Shown here: in pieces, positions 469 through 14,296 of the stretch | How the letters are laid out: the number at the start of each line of letters is the position of its first letter | Position numbering within the stretch: the stretch's first letter is position 1 | IMG/VR virus record: IMGVR_UViG_3300020047_004915 | Direction: 5' to 3' (one strand) | DNA: 20,000 nt | From: an uncultured virus (IMG/VR IMGVR_UViG_3300020047_004915) | Taxonomy: Duplodnaviria; Heunggongvirae; Uroviricota; Caudoviricetes; Schitoviridae | The notes under the pieces: generated by a model | Told to the model about the DNA's origin: nothing | Seen by the model: only the letters and a program-made list of their open reading frames with translations | Databases searched by the model: none | Translations under genes and position numbers: made by a program

Positions 469-780
469 ATGACAGATGAACCAGAAATTACCTTCGTATC
501 TGCAGATGATCCCAACTGTGTGAGTATGCTCATAGGTAGCATCCTTGAATGGCACTCTCATGGTATGGACACTATCCAACATCTGTTGGATGTTCCTGAG
601 AATACTGAGACTGTGATCATCATGGAGGGTGTAGAACATCCTATGAATCTTAGTGGAGATATGCGTAAAGCATTTATTGCTGGAGTTGTTGCAGCATCCT
701 CTGCATTTGTGGAACTTCCTTTTGTTCCATCAAGTAAAGAGGACAGTACTGATGAATCACAAGTCAACACTCTTCAATAG
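469..780 (+). CDS. Hypothetical acidic phage protein, 103 aa
   Basis: ATG at 469 is preceded by a GGAGA RBS. The ORF fills the gap between SSB and the resolvase. No motif recognised. Confidence 0.75.
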   Translation: MTDEPEITFVSADDPNCVSMLIGSILEWHSHGMDTIQHLLDVPENTETVIIMEGVEHPMNLSGDMRKAFIAGVVAASSAFVELPFVPSSKEDSTDESQVNTLQ

Positions 781-1357
781 TGGTTTACGTGTAGTGGGGT
801 TTGATCCTTCGCTACGTAACTGGGGCATTGCTTCAGGAATGTACTATCCCAATGAAGATGGGAGACTTTCAATAGAATTATTGGAAGTTACACAACCAGT
901 ACTTCCCAAAAGCAAGCAAGTAAGGCAGAATAGCCTCGACTTGTTAGCAGCAGCAGCTTTAGCAAAAGCAGCATTCGATAGTATCATTACTGCCGATGCT
1001 GTATTTGTTGAAGTACCCGTAGGAAGCCAAAGTTCTAGGGCAATGGCTTCATACGGAATATGTGTTGGTATACTAGGTGCACTAAGATCAGGAGGAACTC
1101 CTTTCTTTGAACTTAGTCCAGAAGAAGTAAAAAAAGCATCAGTAGGTATTAAGACTGCCACTAAAGCTCAGATGATTGAGTGGGCAGTAGCAAAACATCC
1201 TGAAGCCAACTGGCCAACACATAAGAAGAATGGAGAAATCCATGTTACTGAATCTTCTGCAGAACACATGGCAGATGCTATTGCTACCATATATGCAGGG
1301 TTATCCTGTCAACCGTTCCAACAAATGCTGGCCCTAATTAAAAGGTCAGCAACTTAA
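752..1357 (+). CDS. ruvC: RuvC-like Holliday junction resolvase (RNase H fold), ~201 aa
   Basis: RuvC-type motifs are VVGFDPSLRNWG (catalytic D), VFVEVP (catalytic E), P.EVKKASVG..TATKAQMI.WA, and EHMADAIA (C-terminal acidic residues). I moved the start from 653 to the in-frame ATG at 752, which has GAGGA upstream and gives only a short overlap with the previous gene. Confidence 0.85.
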   Translation: MNHKSTLFNSGLRVVGFDPSLRNWGIASGMYYPNEDGRLSIELLEVTQPVLPKSKQVRQNSLDLLAAAALAKAAFDSIITADAVFVEVPVGSQSSRAMASYGICVGILGALRSGGTPFFELSPEEVKKASVGIKTATKAQMIEWAVAKHPEANWPTHKKNGEIHVTESSAEHMADAIATIYAGLSCQPFQQMLALIKRSAT

Positions 1358-1873: not shown

Positions 1874-4800
1874 TTACAAACCCAACATCCTTAGAGTTGC
1901 AATGTTATCCACAACCCCAGGATATTCCAAAGCCCCTGCATGTAACAAACCACCCCCATAAGAATCCCCAAACACACCAGAATCATAGATCATCGGCAGA
2001 GCATCAATGTACTGATTCAACAGCAATGTAGTCAGTGAACTCAAAGGATGATTACGAGCAAGATACAAAATCACCTTCTGAATCCGAATCAAGTACTTCG
2101 TGAACATCACAAAACCCATGTCATTAGCCCACTGCAACTTACGATGTGAAGGTATGTCATAGTTGATGAATGCATCTGAAGCAGCTTGAATAGCAGCATC
2201 ATGTGTCATGGGATTACGCGCCTTATTCGTCATGTGTTGATACAGAGCATACCTAGCTATAAAGTCACTATGCTGAGTCACAGAGCTAAGTGTTTGATAC
2301 ATCCAACCATCTCTAGACATGTACAAGAACTTAGCAACTTTCTGTACATTCTTGTGCTTATCCAAGTGCTTGTTCACCTTAGCAGTCAATCCACTCTTGT
2401 ATGAGTAAGCATCTTCATCTGAAGCCACATCCTCAACAATAGTCGGCATCAAACCTTCCTCAATCAGCTTGCTCACTGGGTTACGTGCAATATCATTTTC
2501 CAGCAAAGCAATCTGTCTCCGTGTTTCAGCCTCATCCCTTACATATCCAACTTCCAGTTGATGCTTCAAGTAAGCCAACTTATCTGCATCACGATGATAA
2601 GCACGAGCGCCTAGTATTGCAGTTCTCCAGTACTTCCAGATTTCAAACGGAGTCAACCCATACGCTATCAATTCAAAGTAGTTACTGGTGATGTTATTAA
2701 GCATAACGATCCCAGTCTTCATCACAATGATATCCTTGGTTTCAGCAACAATCTCTTCCCATACATCACCTACATTATTCAACCAGCGTTGTGCACGCTC
2801 TCTCGCAATTGTTCTATCACCTTCATGGCTTGTGCGTGCAAACATGATTGAGAAAACATCAGTGATGATCTTTGCATACATATTCCCTTCAGCAGCATTA
2901 CGGAATACAGCATCAGTAGCACTGCTCTTACGATAACCGAAGAGCAAGTCCAGAGTGTCATAACGAACCAACATACCTTGTGGCCCCCAAACCTTGAGAA
3001 TGGCTTCACGAGTTTCCTTAGGCAACTTCAAGGCAATCTCTCTAATCTCAGGATCAGAACTCAAAGGACTCACACGTACATATGACCTAGCATCTCCTGC
3101 TTTGTTGGCATGGTAGAAGTCATACAGTTCACGTACTACCTTCTCATTTAGTTCAAGGCTGCTGTCACTATCAAACACATTACTAGCAAGAGTACCCAAC
3201 AACTGACTGAAGTTATTGTTACGCTCTTGCACACTATCCTTGATATGCCCCGGAAGCACTTGCTTGTAATCAATAATCTTCATCTGATCATTGATAGTAG
3301 GTCTAGCCCATAGTTGGGTACCCACTGTAGGATCGAAACCAGTGTAAGCAGTACTCAGTAATTGGTTTACATACGGTTCCCTTAGCATAACCTGGTTATC
3401 AATACCTACTTGCTCAATCTGACCAGACACAGTGTTAGGGTTAATACGCTTCATCAGCTTACCTACATAACGTGTAGACAAACCAGAGTAGGAGAACACA
3501 CCACTTAACCAAGGACGCATACCGCTACCTTTGATGGTGTAGATACGTGCATCACTGCTGTTGTCATATCTATCCAGTTCCACAGGTGCAGACTTAGAGT
3601 ACCCAAGCTGTCTAAGTCGCTTATCTTCCTGCATTCCAGCAACCATAACCTCTACGTGTGGGTTTAGCACTTCAGGTACAAATCCCTTAGGTACAAGGTA
3701 AGTTTTACCCTTGAACATCTTCTTGGTAGCTTCCTCAATGTAGTGTTTATGAGCTAACAGTGTCATATGCACACCATTACCCTTATCACCACGCGAGAGT
3801 TGTTCACGCATGATGTTAGCCACCATCTCCCGTTGTTGGTCAGCAACATTACCTGACAAGATAGCTTGCAGGGTAGCCAACTTATCAATCATAGGTATGG
3901 CTTGAGTAGTAATAGCACTAGGCACCTTACCTGACTTCTCTGTACCAGCAAGAGTAGAAATCTGGATTGCATTACCCAAGACATGTTGAGTCTTGTCTTC
4001 CTCTGTCATCAAGCTATGCCCCAAAGCCTTGGCAGTAGTAATGTAGAAGTTAGCCAGTCCAGGAATACCCTTCACTTTCAAACCATTCAGTGATTGCTCA
4101 ATCTTGGTAATCTCAGCCTTGAGGTAAGACTCATCAGAGAACAGTTTCTCAATCTCTTCCAGAGACATGGTATCCAGCAACATGAAGGCACCTGACCGAA
4201 TCAGATACTTGGTCATGGCTTCACTTTCTTTCTTGGAGAAAGAACGCTTACCAAAGGAAGCAAGCACAGTATTGCTAACCGTAGTCATAATACCTTTACG
4301 CTGATTCTCCAAACGTTTGCTAATACGACCGAGTTTATGCAATGGAAGAGTGGCTTCAGTAGCTCCCCGCATCTCATTCAACACACCCATAGCCAAGCCA
4401 TACTGATGCTGGCCAGCCTTGCTATAAACCTTGCGAGTAGCCTCAGCCATTGCTTCTACTTGATCTTGTGCAGTGACTCTCACAGCAGTTCCCAAAGCCC
4501 CTACAAAGGCATTCTTGCTCTTGGTGAATACTCTGCTATTCCCAAACTTGTACAGGGCTTGCTTGCCCTTGTTGGTGAGGTATTCAGTACCTGCTTCAAT
4601 ACGATCACCAAGCTTGTCCGGTTGCATGAGACGATGACGCTTCTTCATCTCAATACCCACCAAAGTCTTCAGCAGAGATTCCATCTTCACATCTGCTTTC
4701 TGACCAGAGTAAGTCTTGGTAGCACGACTCTCAAAAGCATTGAGCACCTTGTTAAACCATGACAGCAGACGTTCTGTAAATGTTGTAGGCACAGGAGTAG

Positions 4801-7800
4801 CTTCACGATTCTGAGAGCCATACTGGAATAGTGCATTGACCTCTTCTACACCCAAAACCATGGCAGCAAAGCGAGCAATGTGATTGGACTTACCATCAAC
4901 ACCATTCTCTACTTTGAACAGGAAAGCATGGAGAGCTTCAGCACGCTGCTGTTCAGTCTTAGTTGCAGCAGCAAAGTTAGGCAACATGGCTTGTGCATTG
5001 GGATACTTCTTGTATGCCTCATTGAACATCCGAGTGAGTTGGGTGTATGCAATGGTGGTATGACCTTCATTGTCTTCGATGGCAGCACGTACAGTAGCTT
5101 CAATCTGTTCTGCAACAAACTGCTCTTGCTCACTCACCACGAAACCAGAGGCAATGATGTCAGACACAAAGGGGAATGATTGATCATTCACAGCCTTGGC
5201 ATATACATCTAAAGGAGACAATGCAGAGCTATCAGCAACTGCCTTGGCAAGCGTACCAAACGGGCCATGAAGGGTGTTCACGATACCATTCAATATACCT
5301 TTGAGGTGTGCTTCAAAAGACGCCTGCAAAGTGCCTTTAGATAAACCATCAAAGATTTCTACTGTAGTGTACTTACGTACCGTAGCAGCAGGAGAATGAC
5401 TACGAATAATCGTGTCAGATACTGCCTTGGTAGTATTGGTTTCCTGTTCTGCAATCAAGCCAGACACATTGTTGATCAATGCGCCAAAGACTGTTTGAAG
5501 TTTATCTTGGGTTAATCCAAGAGCTTTAAACACTGTCCGTACAAAGGCTTTGAATAGTCCTTCAGTGGTGTAAGCAATACCCTGAAGGTCAATCATGAAC
5601 TCTTTATTGGTAATACCATAAGTGATAAATTCATCCAGATTCTGTATCAAGTCTGGTGATCCAAACACCCTAGAGTACTTGGCTTCAAGGGTTACTTTAG
5701 CCAATTCATACATCTTGGTAATTTCAGCAATAGCAGCTTTTTGTACGTCTGTTTGGTTCTTGGAAACCAACGCAGCAGACAATACAGAGTGAACCAGTTC
5801 ATGCAGAATAGTCTCTGGAGTAACAGAACTATTCTTGTACATGTGACCACGTACATAGAGAGTGGCCTTACCTTCATCCAAAACAAATTGAGCAAACTCG
5901 TTGCCAGTCATAACCTTTTCAGGTACATCACTACGTTTTACATCTTCAGTAAGATACACCACCTTAAAGTCAGGAATAAGCTTCATGATGCTATTCAATA
6001 GCATATCGAAGTAAGGAATCTTGGCTTCAGAAGTAATAGCTTTCAGTGCTTGTACCAAAGAATCTTTGGTTACATTAGGCTGTGAAAGTGCAGCCACTAA
6101 CCCAGGGAATTTAGCAGGTGCAGTAGTCAATTCTCCCCACGCAGCAGCGTTAGCTTTAGCGGTCTGAAGTTCACTGACAATACGTTCAAAAGTAATAATC
6201 TGAGCTGTTACATCAATCCCTGCCAAAGCAGTCTTATCTCCCTTCTCTGAAGCAATAATAGCTTCAATCACAGCAAGAATTGTTGCATCTGTTACTGGAT
6301 TCAACAGAGTCTTCAATGCTTTGATAGCACCTGCACGTTCAGATTTACCAAAGTAGGTGTAGGACGCCTTAGCCTCTTTAAGTAGGATACTTAAGTGGGG
6401 AGTTAATCCTACAGCAGTATTAGGTGGTGAGCTTTGCGTAGTAGGTGTGAGTACATTCACCAATACATTCTTGACAAAGACACCCAAACCTTTAGCACTG
6501 CTTTCCCTATTACCAGCAATATTCAAGGTAGCGGGTTTGTGTTCTTCAAGGAAAGCTTTTACTTGTGCAGCAGCTACACTCCCTTTCTTGGTAGAAACCA
6601 CAAGGTAAGGTTTGCCGTGTTTCTTGGCAAGACGTACTGTCGAATCAGAACCTGGAGACTTCTCAGCTACATTGAAAATGATAGTAGCATCACTGTTCAC
6701 TACGTTATCTTCTGTACGTCCCGGATAACTAGGAAGTGCATGTTCGGTTACACCGAAGTCTTTAAGAGATGCATCATCTCCAGTTTCTGTTCTATACCCT
6801 TTAGGTGCAGTACCTCCAGTTTGAAGCCCAAGTGCTTTACCTGCTTCCAATCCACCTCGATCACCGCCAGTCTGTCCACCGCTGATGATCTTAGTTACTC
6901 CATAAGGAGTGCCTGTGTTAGTGGTACTAGCTTTCTTGGTTTGAAGTAATGGTTTGGTAGCTAAGATAGCTTGCTGTTGTTCAGGTGTGAATGCCTTATC
7001 TACAGTCATCAGCTTAGCTGAAGCAGCTTGACGCATAGCATCTGTAACTTCCAGAGCACCACCTTCATAAGCATATTGACTCAGGTAAGCCATGTTAGCC
7101 ATGAAGCCAAGTTTCTGGGTATCTGCCTGTGCTGCATAACCGTACAGAGCAGTCATACTCTCTACAATCTGAGCATAGGCATCTTTGCTGTTAGCCTTTC
7201 TGCTAGGATCAGGTTGCTTAAGATGTGCAGCCAGCATACTGATATAAGCATCAGCCTCTTCCTTGGTCATGGAAGCCACAACAACAGGAATAGCTTGGAT
7301 AGTACGCATCAAACCATTGGCTACTTCACGTACAGGAGAGTATTCAAGCAAAGCATTCCAAAGGTTTGTATTCAAACGATGTGCTTGATCAACAATCCTA
7401 CCCACACCAGTTAAATCAGCATCGTGGATATTGAGAGCTTCAGTACCTTTCACTGCACCATGGGAGGTTCTGCTATCCAGAGAGTGAGTAGGCATAGCCA
7501 CCATACTGACACTAGGAGAGTCATCCAGATTCTCATAGCCATAGGTAGTCATGGTAGACAGTGAAGTACCATCTTCCAATTGGAATGGTTTGAAACGAAG
7601 TACTGATCTATATCCCGGACGACGTGATTCCCTACGATTACGCTTACCCATCATAGGAATACGAGCATCAGCACCATTGTCACTTTCCTTGGAGAACTGA
7701 GTAGCTACAGTAGGCAACATCCCTTTGATACGCTCACGGATAGCTTCCTCTTGTTCAAAGGTAATACTGTCACCAATCATATCTCTGAGGTACTGGTACG

Positions 7801-10800
7801 TAGCATTGTAGATATTGAATGCCAAGTTACTCCCTGTAGTGATGGCATCCTTTACCTTAATGACCTTTTGAAACTTGTCATTAAAAGTAGCCTCAATAGC
7901 ATCTCCCAAAGTATCTTGAAAAACAGAAGCCATAGCATTCAATTGCTTGTCTGAGAACTCAAACTCTACCCAGAACTTGGTTCTGTCTTCTTCATAGGCT
8001 TTGGTTGTGGTGTCAATCTTCAGCCCTTCAGGAAGCAAACCATTGATATGAGTTACCAATGTCTGCATGGCTTGAGCACGTTCACCTGCTTCAGCATTAG
8101 CCACATCTTCCATCTTGTCATACATACCACTGAGGAATTCATTGAACATCCCAGTGACCAGCGTCTCCATACCAGAACCAAAGTGGAACTGAGTAGTAGA
8201 TGTCTTTACGATCTTACGTGCAGCAGAAGTAGCCGTACCATCTTCCTTGATCAATGGTTTGGTGAAGTAGTACACATGGTTGAGTTGCTGTTTGAACGCA
8301 TCACCAGCAGCCTTCATACGTCTTGTGAGGTGTTCTACCATCCCTTTAGCGTTATCTTCATACAAGTCATTACGACCCTCTACACCACGCCATACGTTGT
8401 AATCCTTGTGCTGTTCTTGAGGATTCAAACCAAAGAAACCACCTCGCTCAAGGAATGCAGGAGTGCCATAAGTACCCCATAGAAGATTGGTCAGCATAGG
8501 CCCATTAGTAACACCATCAGCTTCAGCAATGAGGTGTACAGTGAAACTATCAAGGTCTGTGCGTTGAGCATGAAGCATGTTTGCCAAGGCAATCAGACCC
8601 TGTAAACCATGGAGTCTAGTCTTTGTCTTGGCAACAGCATTCACAATGCTACGTTGCTCAGCATCAGTGAGATCAGCATCAGAGTAGATACGATCATAGA
8701 TAGCTTCTACAGCAGCACTGAATACAGGATTGGTAATGGAATACACACCATCCTTAACAGTCAAACCAAGTGCTTTAGTGACATCATTCAAGGCTGCTTC
8801 ATGACTCTTCTTGTCAATATCAATATCCAGAGCCAAAGCTACAGCAATCAACAAAGCATTCACTTCTTCAGTGTTGTTTCTGTCGATAGTGGTCTGCCAC
8901 TCTTTACGAGTCATCAGGAAACGTGCACCAGCCTTGTCTGCCTGAGGATTGAAGATTGTCTGTTCAATACCAGCACGATTCTGACTCCAAGGAACATTCT
9001 TCAGAAAGAAAGGAACACTAAAGTCATTCTTCAAAGTCTTGTTAATGAAGTCTTTCATACCAAACCAGCTACGTTCAAGACCTTCATTAACAGCTTGAAT
9101 AGCGAGTACCTTAGTCTTCTGGGTACGCTTGTTGTTACCATCAACAATAACCTTACCCATCATTTCCAAAACATATTCAGAATCCATACCATCAAGCACT
9201 ACGAAACCTTCTTCATAGGCAAAATTCTCAATCTTGTTGCTCTCATTGAGAGTATTCAGTAATTCACTAGGAGAATCCTGGAACTTACTACCAAGATCAG
9301 CAGAAGTGGTTTCAACAGGCTTTAAGGAAGGTTCCTTAACCTTCTCTTCCACACCCATCATCTTGGATACAATACTTTGACTACCTTGACCAGACACAGC
9401 AATCATTCTGTTCTCAGTATCTGCATCAACCATCTTGCGTAGAATTTCATAGTCAATAGTTTCCTTCTTAGCTTTTTCTTCCAAAGTACCAACCATTACA
9501 TTAGCAAAGCGAATGAAGTTCTCTCCAGATGCTTTAGCAGACTCAAAGCTCATGGTTTTGGTATGACCAGTTACTGCACCAATCTCAAACATCAGACGTA
9601 GGGCAATATCTCCCAATTGATTCTGCAACCGAGAATCCATGACTACTGGGGTATCTTTATTGGCTTTAACACCAAGAGACTCTACAACACGTTGTCCAAG
9701 ATCATTAACCACAGCACCCCTACGTTCACCAATCAAAGAGAACTTCTTGTACTCTGCAGGAGACACTGGGAAGTCTTCCTGACGTTGAAGCAAAGCATTG
9801 ATCTCTTTGGGGGTACGCCTGTACGTCATCCCACCTGCATTCTGAATGAAAGAGAACACAGCATAAGCAATAGCTGCTTTCACATTCTCTTCCAGTTCAT
9901 AAGAGACAATTTTACCGTTCTCACGTACTGGAAGCATGAAGGATTCATACAAGTACTGGCTTTCAAACTTAGCATCCTGCTTAACCAACAAACCATCAAT
10001 CATAGGCATCCATTCAGTTACCTTACGCAACAGAATACCCAGAGCATGGTTCTGCTCAGGAGTACGATCCTTTTCCTTTATGAACTCATCAATAATGTTT
10101 GGAAAATCTCTCCATGTACTGAAAAAGTAGGGTACTGAAGCCAATGGTTTAGTAGTGGCACCCTTACCTTTGTTCTGAGTGAACTTACCAGACAGAAAAC
10201 TTACTCCCCTACTTAAGGAGTACAGAACACCCGAACCACTATAATGTTCCTCTTCTCTGTACAGAGATTCTAGTGCCAGAGTACGTTCTTCTCCTTTCAA
10301 TCCTTTTACTCGTTCTGCCTTACTAGGTGCTTTAGGTGTTGGAGTAACATCCTCAATTACAGGGTCTTCAGTAACTTCAATGGTAGGTTCAGTACGGATT
10401 TCCTGTGTATCCTCCTGCACAACATCATCTTCCAAACCATTGAAGTTTTGGAGTGCAGCCAACTTAGACTGTAAGTACGCAAACGTCTTAGGTGCTCTAG
10501 TATCAAGCTGTGCAAGTCCAGTACCTAAGCCAGCAGTAGGAACTGCTATCTTTGTATTAGGAGGTATCTTTGCAAACGCAGCATCAATGGCTTTCACATT
10601 CTCTTCATACGTAGCGTCAGAAAAGAAAGCATTACTTTGCATAGAAGGAGCGCGCTTTGTGGGAATACCAATTGCATTAGGCTCTCCCCGCATCTCTTTG
10701 GCTTGTCCACCAAAACCTTTACCAAGCAGATTGTCCCCAAACAAGAAGATAGTATCAGGTTCAGCCTGTACCATTGCCCGAGTAATACGATCTCGCTTCT

Positions 10801-13800
10801 CCACTTTAGGTTGAGTACTGCTAGTGGCTTCTACCGTATCTGTAGCAGGGGAGATAGGCATATCCTTACGTACAGGGATAGGAGAAACAGGCTCTGGAGT
10901 TACAGCCGGAGGAGTTTCTTCAGTCACTGTGTTATCTACACCGACTTTACGTGCTTGAAGATACAAAGCACTAAAAACAGTACGTGCTGTTGTTAGCTCT
11001 TTAAGGCTGGAATCTTTACCTTTAGGTAAGACAGTACTGAGTATTTGAGGGATTAACTTCTCAAGTGTATCCAATGCATTGTTTCTATAATTAGGCTGTG
11101 TTCTTCCTGCCATTAAATAAGAAAGTGCATTAAGCATTGGCTGTGTAACGATAGTACCAATAGGTAAACCAACTTGAGTAGGTGTAGGCTTAGCCTCACT
11201 AACCTCAGGAGCCTGTTCTGCAGGGGTTTCAGCAACCACAGGTGCTTGGGTAGCCTCCACTTCAACAGGGGCTTGTTGGGCTTCATTGGGGCTTACAGAG
11301 GCATCCGTGGTAGCAGCCACAGGAGTTGCTACATCAAAGCCAACAGCAATCATGTCTGCTGTCTCAAGACTAGCTGCTTGGAGTGCATCAGCTTCAATCT
11401 CAATAGCAGCGATCAGCTTTCCAGAACCCTTGGATACACTGAAGCCACCATTGATACGGAGATCGGCATCAGACCATTCGTCAGTAGTGCTTTCCCAAGT
11501 GTTGTCTGTCTTACGAATGATATTGATCTGCTTCTTAACAGAACCATCCAGACGAGCATTCAAGGCTTCACGACCAAGCTTGGCACGTTGCAATTGGTTT
11601 GCTGCCCACTTCTCAATACCACGTTGTAAAGCCATAGCATGAGTAAAGTTGTTCTCACGAATAGCTTGAGCAATACCATTACGGTAGTCAGTGATACTCT
11701 TGTTCTTGTTTGCCTTGTCTCCGTTGATCACAGTACGAGTAACTGAAGCTACATCTTGCATAGCATTATAAGCTACCCGTGCAGCACTGAACTTACGAAG
11801 GTAGTTACGCTCCTTTTCAGTAAGATCAACAGAAGTGTCATCAGCAATAGCCAATGCTTCTTCAGGTGTCATACTGCCCAGATCACCCATAGAACGAATA
11901 AGACTGATCTTCTCTGGAGATACAGTTGTCTTACCTTTGGCTTTCTCAGCCAAGATGAGTTCAGTCAATGTGTTACGTTTTTCCCAAGCTACTGTAAGAG
12001 CATCTGAAGCTGCATTGTATGCAGCTTCTTTTTCAGGAGTACCGTCTTGGGCTTTCCATGCTGCATGGTTTTCTTCTTCTGCTTTGTCGTAGGCTTCAGT
12101 GACTGCTTTGAAGTCATCATAGCGAGCTTCTCCGGGTTTCACAGTGACACTAGGAGTTACTTGCTGGTCAGCATCGGAGTACCAATCCAAATTATTCTGT
12201 GCTTCAGTTTGGTCTGCATGTGCTTGTTGTAACCCATCCTCCAAGACTGCTTTAGCATCAGCATCTGTAGTAGCAGCAATAGTCTTCTCTAACTCACTGA
12301 TCTGTGTGGTTATTTCTTGAAGACGCTCTTCAGCCTCTTTCCTTGCCTTAACATTGAGATCAACAACATCTTGAGACGAACCTTTTTTCACTACCAATTC
12401 ATCAGTAGTATTAGTGGTATCTTGAGTACCTTGAAGCTCAGCAATATAAGCTTCATAGGCATCCTTGACATTGGATTCATTGATACTGGTTACAGTGTCT
12501 GTAATAGACTTAACCTTCTCAGGAAGCTCTGCCAATGTGTTTATAGCATTCTGTACGTCTGTGTCATCCATGGCTGTACGGAAGCCATTAAGCTTATCCA
12601 AGAGTCCTTGGATGTTTGTGGTGTCCTTACCTTTGGATGTCCTATCTGCAAGAATAGCTTGAGCATCAGATTCTGCTTTGTTCAGGTAATCAGGTACACC
12701 ATCCATCTTCTTCAGAACATCAGGGGTAAGTCCCTTAGAGTTCAGAAGTTCTTCAGCAGCAGCAATACGAGACTGCATGTCATCATAGATTGCTTGAGCC
12801 TTGTTAGATGCTTCCATACGCACATCAGGAGCAGCATCCTTATTGGTGACAATACCATGAAGGATTTCCATCCCCTTATTGAGATCATAAGTCTTGGACG
12901 TAGGATCAAGGAATGCATCTGCATTACCAGAAAGAATGGCATCGTTCACTGCCTTACGTTCAGCAATCTTGGCTTTACGTTTAGCCACACTTGCCTCTGT
13001 ATTGCCTGTGAGAGCAGCTACGGTAGCAAAGGGTGCAGTGATACCTCCAGAAGCCAAACCACCAATGGTAGCTCCCTTGTATATCTCAAGATCAGAGGCA
13101 GGCTTACCAAGCAACTGACCTTCAGCGTAGGTCTGGTAGCCCTCAGTACCTGCTTCACCAAGAGTGGATTTGAGTACATTCTTTGTCACATCAAGGGTGC
13201 CTACTCCAGCACCCTTCAGCATAGACTTCAGGCCCAATTCCCCGGCTTCTTTGACAGCAGTGGTACCAGCAGCCTTACCCATCAAAGCCAAGGGTGTAAC
13301 AGCCTTATTGAGGCCCATAGCACTAACAGACATCATAGTGCCTACGTACTCAGCACCTGCCAGACTGATAGCATCCCTAAGCATCTCAGCACGTTGTTCT
13401 TCAGGGGGGTACTCACCCCCATTCTTGGCTTTGTACGCTTGCATCCCTTTGTTGTAGTACTCACCTGCATACCCCAAGGTAGTTTCAGCAAGGGCAATCT
13501 TACCAATAAGACCGGCACTACCAAGTGCCAACATAGGCACCTGTTCACCCATATATTCCATGGTTGCTACAGGATTGTCTGCACCAACTTTAACCGCATT
13601 GGCAATAAGATTACCTATGGATGCAGAAGCAGAGATTGCATGAGATATTTTATAAGCCAAAGGTGCAGTATCAGAAGACGTACCTTCAACACTGATACGC
13701 AAAGAAGCCAAGTCTGCTCTACCGCCATCAGCAAGTTCTTTATCAAAAACCTTACGTGCACCTTGCTCAACATACATGCTGTAGTCTTGGCTATCACCAA

Positions 13801-14296
13801 TGGAACTTACAATGTTTTCAAGGTCTTGTACCTGTGCAAAGACATCCTTGGGAGACATCTTTCCATAGTCACTGTCATATTGCTTAGCATTGAAGTAAGC
13901 CACTTCTTCAGGAGTAGCTTTACCTGTATTGATCTTGTTGAAGACTTCATAATCTTTGGGTTGAAGCTTGTTAGTGTAACTTGCTGTACCCAAACTGAAA
14001 GGCATAGACCATGCATTACCACCCATACGCATAGCACTGGAACCGATGGAAGCTGCAAGGTTAGCTACATTTGCAGGCACACTATCTAACTCCAAACCAA
14101 ACACATCAACAGTTGTTCCTTTGGCTTCAGCAAGACGTTGACGATGTTCCGCTGCCAATTGCTTGAGCATGTCTACTTTTTCTTGAGTAGCTGCAAGCAC
14201 TTCATCTGTTTTCGTTGGAGGACTATCTACGAAAGGGCCAAGCAAGCCAAGAGAAGTAGGGTCTTGAACAGAAGCAAACGGATCGTAAGTAGACAT
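1874..14296 (-). CDS. Virion-encapsidated RNA polymerase (N4 gp50-like vRNAP), 4140 aa, with accessory macro-like, cpYpsA/SLOG and zincin modules
   Basis: Motif A EADGVTNGPM (D1927, nt 8516-8518) matches N4 vRNAP. Motif B is RKIVKTSTTQFHFGSG (8171-8218), motif C is LNIHDAD (D2292, nt 7421-7423), and an NPQADK segment is present. The C-terminus is N4-like (LIEEGLMPTIVED...SDFIARYALY...FINYDIP...GFVMFTKY). No Cys was seen. A GAGG RBS precedes the ATG. Confidence 0.95.
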   Translation of the reverse strand: MSTYDPFASVQDPTSLGLLGPFVDSPPTKTDEVLAATQEKVDMLKQLAAEHRQRLAEAKGTTVDVFGLELDSVPANVANLAASIGSSAMRMGGNAWSMPFSLGTASYTNKLQPKDYEVFNKINTGKATPEEVAYFNAKQYDSDYGKMSPKDVFAQVQDLENIVSSIGDSQDYSMYVEQGARKVFDKELADGGRADLASLRISVEGTSSDTAPLAYKISHAISASASIGNLIANAVKVGADNPVATMEYMGEQVPMLALGSAGLIGKIALAETTLGYAGEYYNKGMQAYKAKNGGEYPPEEQRAEMLRDAISLAGAEYVGTMMSVSAMGLNKAVTPLALMGKAAGTTAVKEAGELGLKSMLKGAGVGTLDVTKNVLKSTLGEAGTEGYQTYAEGQLLGKPASDLEIYKGATIGGLASGGITAPFATVAALTGNTEASVAKRKAKIAERKAVNDAILSGNADAFLDPTSKTYDLNKGMEILHGIVTNKDAAPDVRMEASNKAQAIYDDMQSRIAAAEELLNSKGLTPDVLKKMDGVPDYLNKAESDAQAILADRTSKGKDTTNIQGLLDKLNGFRTAMDDTDVQNAINTLAELPEKVKSITDTVTSINESNVKDAYEAYIAELQGTQDTTNTTDELVVKKGSSQDVVDLNVKARKEAEERLQEITTQISELEKTIAATTDADAKAVLEDGLQQAHADQTEAQNNLDWYSDADQQVTPSVTVKPGEARYDDFKAVTEAYDKAEEENHAAWKAQDGTPEKEAAYNAASDALTVAWEKRNTLTELILAEKAKGKTTVSPEKISLIRSMGDLGSMTPEEALAIADDTSVDLTEKERNYLRKFSAARVAYNAMQDVASVTRTVINGDKANKNKSITDYRNGIAQAIRENNFTHAMALQRGIEKWAANQLQRAKLGREALNARLDGSVKKQINIIRKTDNTWESTTDEWSDADLRINGGFSVSKGSGKLIAAIEIEADALQAASLETADMIAVGFDVATPVAATTDASVSPNEAQQAPVEVEATQAPVVAETPAEQAPEVSEAKPTPTQVGLPIGTIVTQPMLNALSYLMAGRTQPNYRNNALDTLEKLIPQILSTVLPKGKDSSLKELTTARTVFSALYLQARKVGVDNTVTEETPPAVTPEPVSPIPVRKDMPISPATDTVEATSSTQPKVEKRDRITRAMVQAEPDTIFLFGDNLLGKGFGGQAKEMRGEPNAIGIPTKRAPSMQSNAFFSDATYEENVKAIDAAFAKIPPNTKIAVPTAGLGTGLAQLDTRAPKTFAYLQSKLAALQNFNGLEDDVVQEDTQEIRTEPTIEVTEDPVIEDVTPTPKAPSKAERVKGLKGEERTLALESLYREEEHYSGSGVLYSLSRGVSFLSGKFTQNKGKGATTKPLASVPYFFSTWRDFPNIIDEFIKEKDRTPEQNHALGILLRKVTEWMPMIDGLLVKQDAKFESQYLYESFMLPVRENGKIVSYELEENVKAAIAYAVFSFIQNAGGMTYRRTPKEINALLQRQEDFPVSPAEYKKFSLIGERRGAVVNDLGQRVVESLGVKANKDTPVVMDSRLQNQLGDIALRLMFEIGAVTGHTKTMSFESAKASGENFIRFANVMVGTLEEKAKKETIDYEILRKMVDADTENRMIAVSGQGSQSIVSKMMGVEEKVKEPSLKPVETTSADLGSKFQDSPSELLNTLNESNKIENFAYEEGFVVLDGMDSEYVLEMMGKVIVDGNNKRTQKTKVLAIQAVNEGLERSWFGMKDFINKTLKNDFSVPFFLKNVPWSQNRAGIEQTIFNPQADKAGARFLMTRKEWQTTIDRNNTEEVNALLIAVALALDIDIDKKSHEAALNDVTKALGLTVKDGVYSITNPVFSAAVEAIYDRIYSDADLTDAEQRSIVNAVAKTKTRLHGLQGLIALANMLHAQRTDLDSFTVHLIAEADGVTNGPMLTNLLWGTYGTPAFLERGGFFGLNPQEQHKDYNVWRGVEGRNDLYEDNAKGMVEHLTRRMKAAGDAFKQQLNHVYYFTKPLIKEDGTATSAARKIVKTSTTQFHFGSGMETLVTGMFNEFLSGMYDKMEDVANAEAGERAQAMQTLVTHINGLLPEGLKIDTTTKAYEEDRTKFWVEFEFSDKQLNAMASVFQDTLGDAIEATFNDKFQKVIKVKDAITTGSNLAFNIYNATYQYLRDMIGDSITFEQEEAIRERIKGMLPTVATQFSKESDNGADARIPMMGKRNRRESRRPGYRSVLRFKPFQLEDGTSLSTMTTYGYENLDDSPSVSMVAMPTHSLDSRTSHGAVKGTEALNIHDADLTGVGRIVDQAHRLNTNLWNALLEYSPVREVANGLMRTIQAIPVVVASMTKEEADAYISMLAAHLKQPDPSRKANSKDAYAQIVESMTALYGYAAQADTQKLGFMANMAYLSQYAYEGGALEVTDAMRQAASAKLMTVDKAFTPEQQQAILATKPLLQTKKASTTNTGTPYGVTKIISGGQTGGDRGGLEAGKALGLQTGGTAPKGYRTETGDDASLKDFGVTEHALPSYPGRTEDNVVNSDATIIFNVAEKSPGSDSTVRLAKKHGKPYLVVSTKKGSVAAAQVKAFLEEHKPATLNIAGNRESSAKGLGVFVKNVLVNVLTPTTQSSPPNTAVGLTPHLSILLKEAKASYTYFGKSERAGAIKALKTLLNPVTDATILAVIEAIIASEKGDKTALAGIDVTAQIITFERIVSELQTAKANAAAWGELTTAPAKFPGLVAALSQPNVTKDSLVQALKAITSEAKIPYFDMLLNSIMKLIPDFKVVYLTEDVKRSDVPEKVMTGNEFAQFVLDEGKATLYVRGHMYKNSSVTPETILHELVHSVLSAALVSKNQTDVQKAAIAEITKMYELAKVTLEAKYSRVFGSPDLIQNLDEFITYGITNKEFMIDLQGIAYTTEGLFKAFVRTVFKALGLTQDKLQTVFGALINNVSGLIAEQETNTTKAVSDTIIRSHSPAATVRKYTTVEIFDGLSKGTLQASFEAHLKGILNGIVNTLHGPFGTLAKAVADSSALSPLDVYAKAVNDQSFPFVSDIIASGFVVSEQEQFVAEQIEATVRAAIEDNEGHTTIAYTQLTRMFNEAYKKYPNAQAMLPNFAAATKTEQQRAEALHAFLFKVENGVDGKSNHIARFAAMVLGVEEVNALFQYGSQNREATPVPTTFTERLLSWFNKVLNAFESRATKTYSGQKADVKMESLLKTLVGIEMKKRHRLMQPDKLGDRIEAGTEYLTNKGKQALYKFGNSRVFTKSKNAFVGALGTAVRVTAQDQVEAMAEATRKVYSKAGQHQYGLAMGVLNEMRGATEATLPLHKLGRISKRLENQRKGIMTTVSNTVLASFGKRSFSKKESEAMTKYLIRSGAFMLLDTMSLEEIEKLFSDESYLKAEITKIEQSLNGLKVKGIPGLANFYITTAKALGHSLMTEEDKTQHVLGNAIQISTLAGTEKSGKVPSAITTQAIPMIDKLATLQAILSGNVADQQREMVANIMREQLSRGDKGNGVHMTLLAHKHYIEEATKKMFKGKTYLVPKGFVPEVLNPHVEVMVAGMQEDKRLRQLGYSKSAPVELDRYDNSSDARIYTIKGSGMRPWLSGVFSYSGLSTRYVGKLMKRINPNTVSGQIEQVGIDNQVMLREPYVNQLLSTAYTGFDPTVGTQLWARPTINDQMKIIDYKQVLPGHIKDSVQERNNNFSQLLGTLASNVFDSDSSLELNEKVVRELYDFYHANKAGDARSYVRVSPLSSDPEIREIALKLPKETREAILKVWGPQGMLVRYDTLDLLFGYRKSSATDAVFRNAAEGNMYAKIITDVFSIMFARTSHEGDRTIARERAQRWLNNVGDVWEEIVAETKDIIVMKTGIVMLNNITSNYFELIAYGLTPFEIWKYWRTAILGARAYHRDADKLAYLKHQLEVGYVRDEAETRRQIALLENDIARNPVSKLIEEGLMPTIVEDVASDEDAYSYKSGLTAKVNKHLDKHKNVQKVAKFLYMSRDGWMYQTLSSVTQHSDFIARYALYQHMTNKARNPMTHDAAIQAASDAFINYDIPSHRKLQWANDMGFVMFTKYLIRIQKVILYLARNHPLSSLTTLLLNQYIDALPMIYDSGVFGDSYGGGLLHAGALEYPGVVDNIATLRMLGL
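5560..5960 (-). other. Zincin-like metallopeptidase module inside vRNAP
   Basis: TILHELVHSVL contains HExxH at nt 5789-5803 (H2832). It is preceded by beta-strand-like segments (AQFV...ATLYV) and followed by LDEFITYG, which offers a candidate third Zn ligand (Glu). Confidence 0.7.
6450..6903 (-). other. Circularly permuted YpsA-type SLOG ('putative molybdenum carrier') domain inside vRNAP (aa ~2465-2616)
   Basis: The family signature is nearly complete: KIISGGQTGGDRGGL..G...G..TGG.APKGY.TE.G...Y..RT..NV..SDATIIF...GS..T...AKKHGKPY...LNIAGNRES. Confidence 0.85.
10450..10800 (-). other. Macrodomain-like module inside vRNAP (aa ~1166-1283)
   Basis: The sequence IFLFGDNLLGKGFGGQAKEMRGEPNAIGIPTK...FFSD...KIAVPTAGLGTGLAQL has two Gly-rich loops positioned like the macrodomain ADP-ribose-binding loops. 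P/T/E-rich linkers bound it on both sides. Confidence 0.65.

Follow-up and report, generated by a model that had tools for sequence, protein, structure and literature searches.

A cpYpsA (SLOG) domain in an exchangeable linker slot of a giant N4-like virion RNA polymerase, a candidate anti-defence cargo

The virion RNA polymerase (vRNAP) of phage N4, gp50, has been described in a 2026 structural paper as built like 'beads-on-a-string' (PMC13434306; here and below, published work is drawn on as far as the available parts of each text go). Its N-terminal domain and polymerase are joined by a linker of about 100 residues (907-1007), and a 23-residue linker (2102-2123), which is invisible in the map, connects the polymerase to the C-terminal domain. 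The N4 capsid holds 4 ± 1 polymerase copies, the polymerase and the C-terminal domain refold in the cytoplasm in a membrane-tethered state, and the C-terminal domain autoinhibits the polymerase (PMC13434306). Here we analyzed a stretch of 20,000 nucleotides (nt) from an uncultured virus of the Schitoviridae (IMG/VR record IMGVR_UViG_3300020047_004915), referred to as the window, which carries the gene of an N4-like vRNAP on its minus strand. The encoded protein, here named P0001, contains a circularly permuted YpsA domain of the SLOG superfamily (cpYpsA). This domain is one allele of an exchangeable slot, which in near-identical polymerases holds a DprA-like SLOG module or nothing.

Giant phage proteins that combine unrelated domains were defined as polyvalent proteins by Iyer et al. 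2017, who counted N4-like vRNAPs, with ART domains, among them and interpreted a region of the N4 vRNAP as a metallopeptidase with polyvalent proteins as its possible substrates (PMC5512222). P0001 is likewise giant and brings together the N4-type polymerase, a HExxH region, cpYpsA and DUF7831 in one open reading frame (ORF); its delivery into the cell is presumed. ART-PolyVal was found in the vRNAP relatives P0263, P0265 and P0017. The main text of that paper holds no occurrence of SLOG, YpsA, NADAR or DUF4326, its supplementary list of 131 domains may bear on novelty, and the available text describes no allelic cassette series at two linkers. Viral YpsA-like SLOG domains have been predicted by Iyer et al. 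2022 to attack 1'-ribosyl N-glycosidic bonds, and NADAR, DUF4326 and macro domains were tied there to ADP-ribose derivatives (PMC9503650). The cpYpsA domain of P0001 shares with them the superfamily, the partners (NADAR, DUF4326, helicases) and the predicted role against ADP-ribose-derived host molecules. However, the viral Macro, NADAR, SLOG and Nudix exemplars of that study are called 'typically standalone', whereas the domain of P0001 is fused, and as likely head-packaged the available text names Macro, NADAR and Nudix, but not SLOG.

A preliminary description of the window had reported an intact cpYpsA/SLOG domain immediately after the polymerase core, flanked by two T/S-rich linkers, and had staked this on a match to the PF12694 profile. 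The finding is real, well above chance level, and the reading broadly reasonable, with a function that is predicted. PF12694, the 'circularly permutated YpsA SLOG family', was matched over positions 1-144 of its 145 (E 7.1e-33, 113.8 bits with a cut-off of 26.2), and 27 of 27 conserved positions were present. The domain lies within amino acids (aa) 2440-2710, between the core and the C-terminal domain as aligned to the vRNAP of the Litunavirus Ab09, which bears out its placement directly behind the core. All motifs and linkers named earlier were located at their places in the minus-strand frame, the strand having been left unstated. The features of this region are, with aa positions of P0001:

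6383..6932, minus strand: in-frame cassette of 550 nt, about aa 2455-2638, comprising cpYpsA, both T/S/P-rich linkers and 11 residues
6905..6937, minus strand: N-side linker KKASTTNTGTP, aa 2454-2464; 5 of 11 positions vary among the four orthologues P0001 to P0004
6452..6889, minus strand: cpYpsA (SLOG) domain, aa 2470-2615; Pfam PF12694
aa 2472-2479, minus strand: motif SGGQTGGD, located in the ORF
aa 2494-2500, minus strand: motif GGTAPKG, located in the ORF
aa 2527-2541, minus strand: motif RTEDNVVNSDATIIF, located in the ORF
aa 2560-2563, minus strand: motif HGKP, located in the ORF
aa 2591-2599, minus strand: motif LNIAGNRES, located in the ORF
6416..6448, minus strand: C-side linker TPTTQSSPPNT, aa 2617-2627; most positions vary among the four orthologues

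The sole match of the domain in the PDB by phmmer was 3imk_A of Syntrophus aciditrophicus, a 'putative molybdenum carrier protein' (E 2.8e-12). This name is the depositors' label; no evidence for cofactor binding was found. An AF2 model, built from an alignment with 98 standalone homologues, had a mean pLDDT of 94.4 and superimposed closely on 3imk (Foldseek E 6.9e-15, TM 0.80/0.88; VIA-align Z 25.1, rmsd 1.5 over 152 residues, 32% identity). Thus profile, fold and conserved residues place the domain with the PF12694 family, which is mostly standalone, whereas the copy of P0001 is embedded in a virion polymerase of 4140 aa. The next nine chains, which we take to be SLOG members (LOG-like proteins, DprA, the Chlamydomonas Moco carrier, YpsA and YgdH), reached moderate VIA Z values: 1rcu 9.1, 3maj 8.7, 3uqz 8.4, 1weh 8.4, 2iz5 8.1, 2nx2 7.8, 4ljk 7.7, 9us2 7.2 and 1wek 7.0. 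The SLOG domain of ThsA with 3'cADPR (7uxs) followed with Z 6.3. A scan of the domain with NCBIfam gave nothing meaningful.

In an alignment of 99 sequences 11 columns were invariant and 16 nearly invariant, and the window as well as its three orthologues matched all of them. Conserved throughout the family are S19, G20, Q22, D26, G42, G53, R74, T75, N78, G96, G142, R144 and E145 (alignment numbering; adding 2453 gives the protein numbering). Across the 174 aligned positions of the four orthologues 26 were variable, 14 of them in the two T/S/P-rich linkers and none at the 27 conserved positions. Judged from these sequences, the folded domain is constrained and the linkers are not.

The allelic nature of the cassette emerged from the comparison with related polymerases. 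At E ≤ 1e-10 a search with the C-terminal domain gave 164 relatives, 120 of them among the matches listed. PF12694 was stored for five of these 120; cpYpsA is rare in this polymerase family. The distance between core and C-terminal domain, as aligned by BLAST, had a median of 92 aa over the 120 listed relatives; it was 272-279 aa where cpYpsA is present and 316-323 aa in alleles with another insert. Nine vRNAPs, P0001 included, were 92-97% identical in the C-terminal domain and more than 90% identical in the cassette flanks (local BLAST). Between ...LLQTKK and AVGLTPHLSILLK... the proteins P0001 to P0004 hold cpYpsA. At the same LLQTKK junction an unrelated module of about 204 aa is present in P0194, P0196 and P0198, and the junction is empty in P0195 and P0197, where it reads LLQTKKDE(A/V)DTAV.

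The exchange could also be followed in DNA. A metagenome scan for related DNA gave two loci (L006 and L007), which are 93-96% identical to the window gene up to nt 7364 of the gene, lose homology there and regain it at nt 7915. These breakpoints are sharp and the same in both loci, and the stop and restart of homology set the exchange unit to window positions 6383-6932. This unit is slightly wider than the interval 6450..6903 given in the preliminary description, which mentions neither the exchange nor the DUF7831 domain in the other linker. Both loci hold 676 nt of the DprA-like module compared with the 550 nt of the window, in frame in either case. The GC content of the cassette (0.447) is close to that of the gene (0.438), so composition gives no sign of foreign origin. 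Long gaps between core and C-terminal domain were also seen in P0203 to P0206, P0302 and P0303 (213-252 aa, plus 680 and 998 aa); they may hold more cargo modules.

The alternative module was characterized in P0194, where aa 2471-2643 matched phrog_768, 'DprA-like DNA recombination-mediator protein' (E 4e-41, profile 2-182 of 191). Its matches to Pfam DprA (E 0.0016-0.0038), to TIGR00732 dprA (E 0.003) and to the PADLOC models PsyrA (E 5.9e-6) and ShosA (E 0.0042) were all below the curated cut-offs. The Atlas pointed to DprA, LDcluster4 and YAcAr clusters as leads (scores 0.82-0.89), and phmmer of the cassette against the PDB gave nothing at E ≤ 1. ShosA and PsyrA are DprA-like SLOG antitoxins of PRTase-type defence, and the alternative cassette matches both over about 55 residues around GSR...SGGxxGxD. 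The cpYpsA sequence, on the other hand, matches neither PADLOC model, and ShosA (8zva) reached Z 6.9 with the cpYpsA model. Read directly, the motifs of the two cassettes stand in permuted order: SGGQTGGD and AGNRES in the window, IGSRET and SGGAKGAD in P0194. Both cassettes are basic (pI 9.3-9.4). They appear to share superfamily and similar motifs, with homology not proven. In the polymerases P0200 and P0202, which are 45% identical to P0001, a phrog_768 module is found before the core.

The protein that carries the cassette has the three-part build and the gene neighbourhood of N4 gp50 and the Litunavirus vRNAPs. Its main features are:

1874..14296, minus strand: vRNAP gene coding for P0001, an ORF of 4140 aa with zero internal stops
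6980..10387, minus strand: RNA polymerase core, aa 1304-2439, from tblastn and blastp alignments
1883..6166, minus strand: C-terminal domain, aa 2711-4138; blastp to Ab09 aa 1971-3395, 28.7% identity
5789-5803, minus strand: HExxH motif HELVH, aa 2832-2836, inside the C-terminal domain

P0001 matched phrog_2206, 'virion RNA polymerase', over aa 168-4111 (PHROGs, E 0), and homology extended across the N-terminal domain, the core and the C-terminal domain. With aa 1300-2460 as query, tblastn matched 253 phage records of GenBank over aa 1304-2441, with an identity of about 28%; the ten host genera named among the listed core matches are typical for N4-like phages. In the core, identity is about 28% with Litunavirus, falling to 20-24% with N4. 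The Ab09 vRNAP (3398 aa) aligned in four collinear blastp segments: P0001 aa 77-523 to Ab09 aa 75-476, aa 790-1036 to aa 579-816, the core (aa 1304-2439) to aa 791-1879 and the C-terminal domain (aa 2711-4138) to aa 1971-3395. To gp50 the blastp alignment was weak (1709-2070 to 1355-1706 and 2776-4088 to 2169-3446). The gene surroundings, compared with the gene maps of Ab09 and N4, are N4-like, with SSB (phrog_743) on the opposite strand and structural-type genes upstream (phrog_2050, phrog_2220 and phrog_2130). By analogy with gp50, P0001 probably resides in the capsid and leaves it together with the DNA.

No Pfam model of N4 polymerase domains reached E ≤ 0.1 on P0001, although such entries are stored for its orthologues P0003 and P0004. 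Megablast of window positions 5500-8000 against GenBank phages gave zero matches, indicating that there is no close sequenced phage relative in GenBank, and no related DNA was found for the window in the viral_contigs collection.

P0001 is 640-740 aa longer than gp50 and the Litunavirus vRNAPs. Its surplus over Ab09 is located in three stretches: aa 524-789, aa 1037-1303 and aa 2440-2710. Two of these places correspond to the two flexible linkers of gp50; one is occupied by DUF7831, the other by cpYpsA. The stretch from core to C-terminal domain, aa 2440-2710, comprises 271 aa compared with 91 aa in Ab09; extrapolated onto P0001, the gp50 linker between polymerase and C-terminal domain would fall at approximately aa 2465-2730. 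Aa 1037-1303 are without an Ab09 counterpart in blastp. The third stretch, aa 524-789 (window region 12728-11930, minus strand), has 266 aa compared with 102 in Ab09 and is charged and coiled-coil-like; its Pfam matches to TSNAXIP1_N and KIF21A_4th are weak and sub-threshold.

The motif HELVH lies about 200 aa past the cassette and has HELLH as its counterpart in the Ab09 polymerase. The putative metallopeptidase region at this motif could free the cassette by cutting the linkers.

The second occupied place, here named slot 1, has the following features:

10388..11152, minus strand: variable slot 1, aa 1049-1303, between N-terminal domain and core
10466..10798, minus strand: DUF7831 domain, aa 1167-1277, inside slot 1; Pfam PF25176, E 3e-38

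Slot 1 varies among the near-identical polymerases as well. DUF7831 is retained in P0198. In P0002 and P0194 the slot (aa ~1046-1300) holds another module of about 254 aa without Pfam or PHROG match, in P0003 DUF7831 alone is missing and the first half of the slot is present, and in P0004, P0195, P0196 and P0197 the slot is missing altogether. The DUF7831 family comprises 1503 standalone homologue clusters of proteins of about 125 aa, which are mostly phage-borne and very conserved (the best 120 of the 1503 clusters are 55-68% identical to the query). The AF2 model of the domain had a pLDDT of 92.9. Its best VIA matches were Poa1p with Z 5.3 and the macrodomain of DarG with Z 5.2, and six of the top ten rows were named macro, X or ADRP domains, with all Z values under the noise guide of 7-8. 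Foldseek gave nothing at E ≤ 0.001 and the sequence found no PDB match better than E 0.78. A macro-like fold of DUF7831 is a lead, not a result.

Outside this polymerase family, cpYpsA is widespread. By phmmer 6138 cluster representatives were found at E ≤ 0.001; of the best 150, 102 have at most 230 aa, and most are standalone with about 155 aa. In phage records the domain is sparse: tblastn against 50,697 records gave 11 matching records, which comprise Maribacter phages, where a gene of about 150 aa stands alone, as well as Virus Rctr197k and the crAss-like IAS virus. An N4-like phage was not seen among them, and the ten genera named for the listed polymerase matches include none of the 11 record names. 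In a collection of 5.8 billion proteins, however, cpYpsA was present in 46 further proteins of 2277-7245 aa.

The company of cpYpsA was counted from the stored Pfam lists of 47 such giant proteins, including the one of the window. DUF7831 and the N4 polymerase domains were each found beside it in six of 47, NADAR and ART-PolyVal in five each, DUF4326 in three, an AlkB-like oxygenase in two, and a histidine phosphatase and helicase domains in one each; 22 of 47 had no other Pfam domain. The architectures from the domain scan were cpYpsA-NADAR (P0009), cpYpsA-NADAR-DUF7831 (P0035), DUF7831-cpYpsA (P0019), cpYpsA-DUF7831 (P0160), AlkB-cpYpsA (P0027), cpYpsA-DUF4326 (P0076) and cpYpsA-helicase (P0057), and the polyvalent-protein domain LPD38 was detected in the cpYpsA protein P0106. 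SF1/Dda-like helicases are fused to cpYpsA in P0057 and P0276. The proteins P0048 and P0052 each carry two tandem cpYpsA domains.

Six other polymerases of the phrog_2206 type carry cpYpsA before the core. Four of them were assigned by the PHROGs scan (P0011, P0014, P0019 and P0276) and two by BLAST and stored Pfam entries (P0018 and P0020). The PHROGs scan of 12 further cpYpsA giants gave no polymerase, two C-termini of the 'virion structural protein' type and five proteins without match. In a FastTree phylogeny of 195 domains the four orthologues grouped together with support and had no close relative beyond their group; the next cpYpsA domains are at most 57% identical and mostly found in other giant proteins. 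The copies in giant proteins need at least six origins on starred branches (21 of 192 branches were starred). Such a tree had been proposed as a way to the donor, but no donor could be named, with most deep branches unsupported.

A different arrangement was found in the IAS virus (L001, NC_049978). Its gp055 (5236-7749), a protein of 837 aa, carries cpYpsA at aa 268-415 (E 7e-27). The gene is located directly upstream of a giant RNA polymerase gene of a type unrelated to the N4-like vRNAP, as a separate gene and not as a fusion. The crassvirus polymerase is virion-packed (PMC13434306), and gp055 is a second, independent link of cpYpsA to a polymerase of the virion-packed type.

What the cassette does can be predicted with limited confidence. 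We give an even chance to its being an autonomous anti-defence cargo domain. At the site of DNA entry it would bind or hydrolyse a nucleotide or a moiety of the ADP-ribose type, either free or attached to single-stranded DNA (ssDNA). As judged by homology to N4, the cassette would be delivered to the host cytoplasm right at time zero, in few copies and tethered beside the entering genome. Its work there would not depend on transcription; the cassette would be one bead of a polyvalent protein, carried as anti-defence cargo. The pocket formed by SGGQTGxD, R-T-x-x-N and G-N-R-E would bind a ribose-phosphate or nucleotide moiety. Most likely, the cassette would hydrolyse or locally capture a molecule derived from NAD+ or ADP-ribose, or a modified base (ADP-ribosylated or other) on single-stranded nucleic acid. 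Early transcription and genome entry would thereby be shielded from host immunity.

Empty alleles and the varying position of cpYpsA in other polymerases suggest autonomy. About four copies per capsid are too few for a sponge and favour a catalytic or cis-acting role, and the class of ligand is suggested by the partner domains (NADAR, DUF4326, macro) together with the predictions in PMC9503650. NADAR enzymes have been reported to reverse ADP-ribosylation of DNA bases. According to the available text of a 2026 preprint, anti-signalling genes and a cADPR sponge are encoded elsewhere in N4-like genomes, which indicates that these phages are under immune-signalling pressure.

The preliminary description had placed the domain on an injected protein, in agreement with the homology of P0001 to the injected N4 vRNAP. 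Its suggestions that the domain might cleave an immune signal or target modified nucleic acid would agree with the predictions in PMC9503650. Its further idea of sequestering such a signal is disfavoured by the 4 ± 1 polymerase copies per N4 capsid (PMC13434306). It had also held that cpYpsA has no established substrate, and the literature searched gave none.

Several points weigh against the anti-defence reading. The link to ADP-ribose would rest on domain co-occurrence, and nearly half of the giants (the 22 of 47) lack any other Pfam domain. The DprA-like ShosA binds ssDNA, not small molecules (PMC11961720, PMC12961424), and the DprA-like alternative cassette points to nucleic-acid binding. 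With the cpYpsA profile the DprA-like module was aligned at the 11-residue SGGxxGaD motif alone, at about 0 bits, and no PADLOC model matched cpYpsA at E ≤ 1. LOG-type phosphoribohydrolases have their catalytic Glu in PGGxGTxxE. At the corresponding stretch, a correspondence read by eye, the cpYpsA consensus is SxGxxLTxxxC without conserved Glu, and hydrolase chemistry is therefore not assured. Furthermore, many immune signals are made late, and four tethered enzyme copies may matter little. Measured activity, ligand or packaging of any cpYpsA member was not found in the literature searched. A nucleic-acid substrate would be equally open, considering the DprA-like alternative, the fusions to helicase and AlkB-like domains and the ssDNA binding of ShosA.

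An alternative is that both SLOG cassettes are non-catalytic ssDNA binders, which is possible but unlikely. They could assist the polymerase in holding or protecting the incoming genome or its hairpin promoters; loading or deflecting recombination proteins of the host would be another task for them. This would fit the slot's acceptance of the DprA-like module with its weak DprA, PsyrA and ShosA matches, the binding of ssDNA and RecA by ShosA (PMC11961720, PMC12961424), the DprA chains among the best folds after 3imk (Z 7.7-8.7), the helicase fusions in P0057 and P0276 and the basic nature of both cassettes. However, empty-slot alleles in near-identical polymerases make the cassette dispensable for transcription, and the dense invariant polar residues of cpYpsA are typical of a small-ligand pocket. 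Moreover, the wider family is mostly standalone (the 102 of 150 best representatives), and its commonest named neighbours are NADAR, DUF7831 and ART domains.

Alternatively, the domain might sense a host nucleotide of the NAD+/ADP-ribose type and tune the polymerase by shifting it between a tight and a split state of the enzyme. The linker that holds the cassette joins the polymerase and the C-terminal domain, which autoinhibits it in N4 (PMC13434306), and SLOG domains fused to nucleic-acid enzymes have been proposed as sensors by Iyer et al. 2022 (PMC9503650). Nevertheless, we consider this improbable. The domain stands before the core in six other vRNAPs and is found in many giants that do not match the P0001 polymerase in BLAST or PHROG checks; such varied placement speaks against tuning by allostery, and empty alleles occur in addition.

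Two further explanations are very unlikely. As an effector of host physiology, the domain would perturb division or NAD metabolism, not immunity, in the manner of Bacillus YpsA, whose overproduction inhibits cell division via a predicted nucleotide-binding GxD/E site (PMC6459960). A GxD motif is also present in the cpYpsA domain of P0001, but cpYpsA forms a family of its own with circular permutation (the YpsA structure 2nx2 matched at Z 7.8 with 15% identity), and a stoichiometric effect on a division protein is unlikely with about four tethered copies. There is just as little to be said for a passive bead or decaying passenger, which the flexible linker would accommodate as a neutral insertion without selected activity. 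The slot does accept very different contents or none, and the GC content of the cassette is nothing special next to that of the gene. Against this stand the conserved positions, of which 0 of 27 changed in the four orthologues while the linkers vary freely, the full-length PF12694 match and the repeated, independent capture of the domain in giant virion-type proteins.

A stoichiometric sponge for an immune signal, like Tad1, Tad2 or Acb2, is hardly credible: SLOG domains can bind cyclic ADP-ribose, as in the ThsA structure 7uxs, and N4-like phages encode signal sponges elsewhere in the genome, but 4 ± 1 polymerase copies per capsid (PMC13434306) and a late structural product do not give a sponge-level abundance early in infection.

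Returning to the anti-defence cargo, a more specific form of it seems doubtful. Here gp50-type linkers would be plug-and-play anti-defence slots, and cpYpsA a ribose-phosphate N-glycosidase acting in cis on the entering genome. It would strip ADP-ribose (DarT-type) or other ribosyl adducts from ssDNA bases or, alternatively, reverse the products of PRTase-type abortive-infection toxins (Shosta, PsyrTA). The DprA-like cassette would then be a non-permuted functional equivalent and DUF7831 a minimal partner of macro type.

Elsewhere in the window two overlapping ORFs in different frames were found:

469-780, plus strand: ORF with a PHROG match to Mu Gam-like end protection, E 3.5e-13
653-1357, plus strand: ORF with a PHROG match to a RuvC-like resolvase, E 1.6e-36; its true start is probably downstream of 653

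In the literature searched, neither the biochemistry of cpYpsA nor DUF7831 nor the occurrence of SLOG domains in virion polymerases was treated. Among the papers listed, virion RNA polymerase and SLOG occurred together in a jumbo-phage review only, whose available text does not connect the two. Compared with the literature reached, three points are new: the fusion of cpYpsA into N4-like polymerases, its nature as one allele of an exchangeable slot, and the coincidence of two such slots with the flexible linkers of gp50.

With 6138 representatives cpYpsA is a large orphan family. The natural allelic series of cpYpsA, DprA-like module and empty slot in a near-identical injected protein resembles an isogenic experiment on what the domain protects against. 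The location of the slots at the disordered linkers of gp50 suggests a general rule by which giant ejected proteins gain functions while the polymerase is left undisturbed. The same linkers suggest a place for engineered cargo in N4-like phages.

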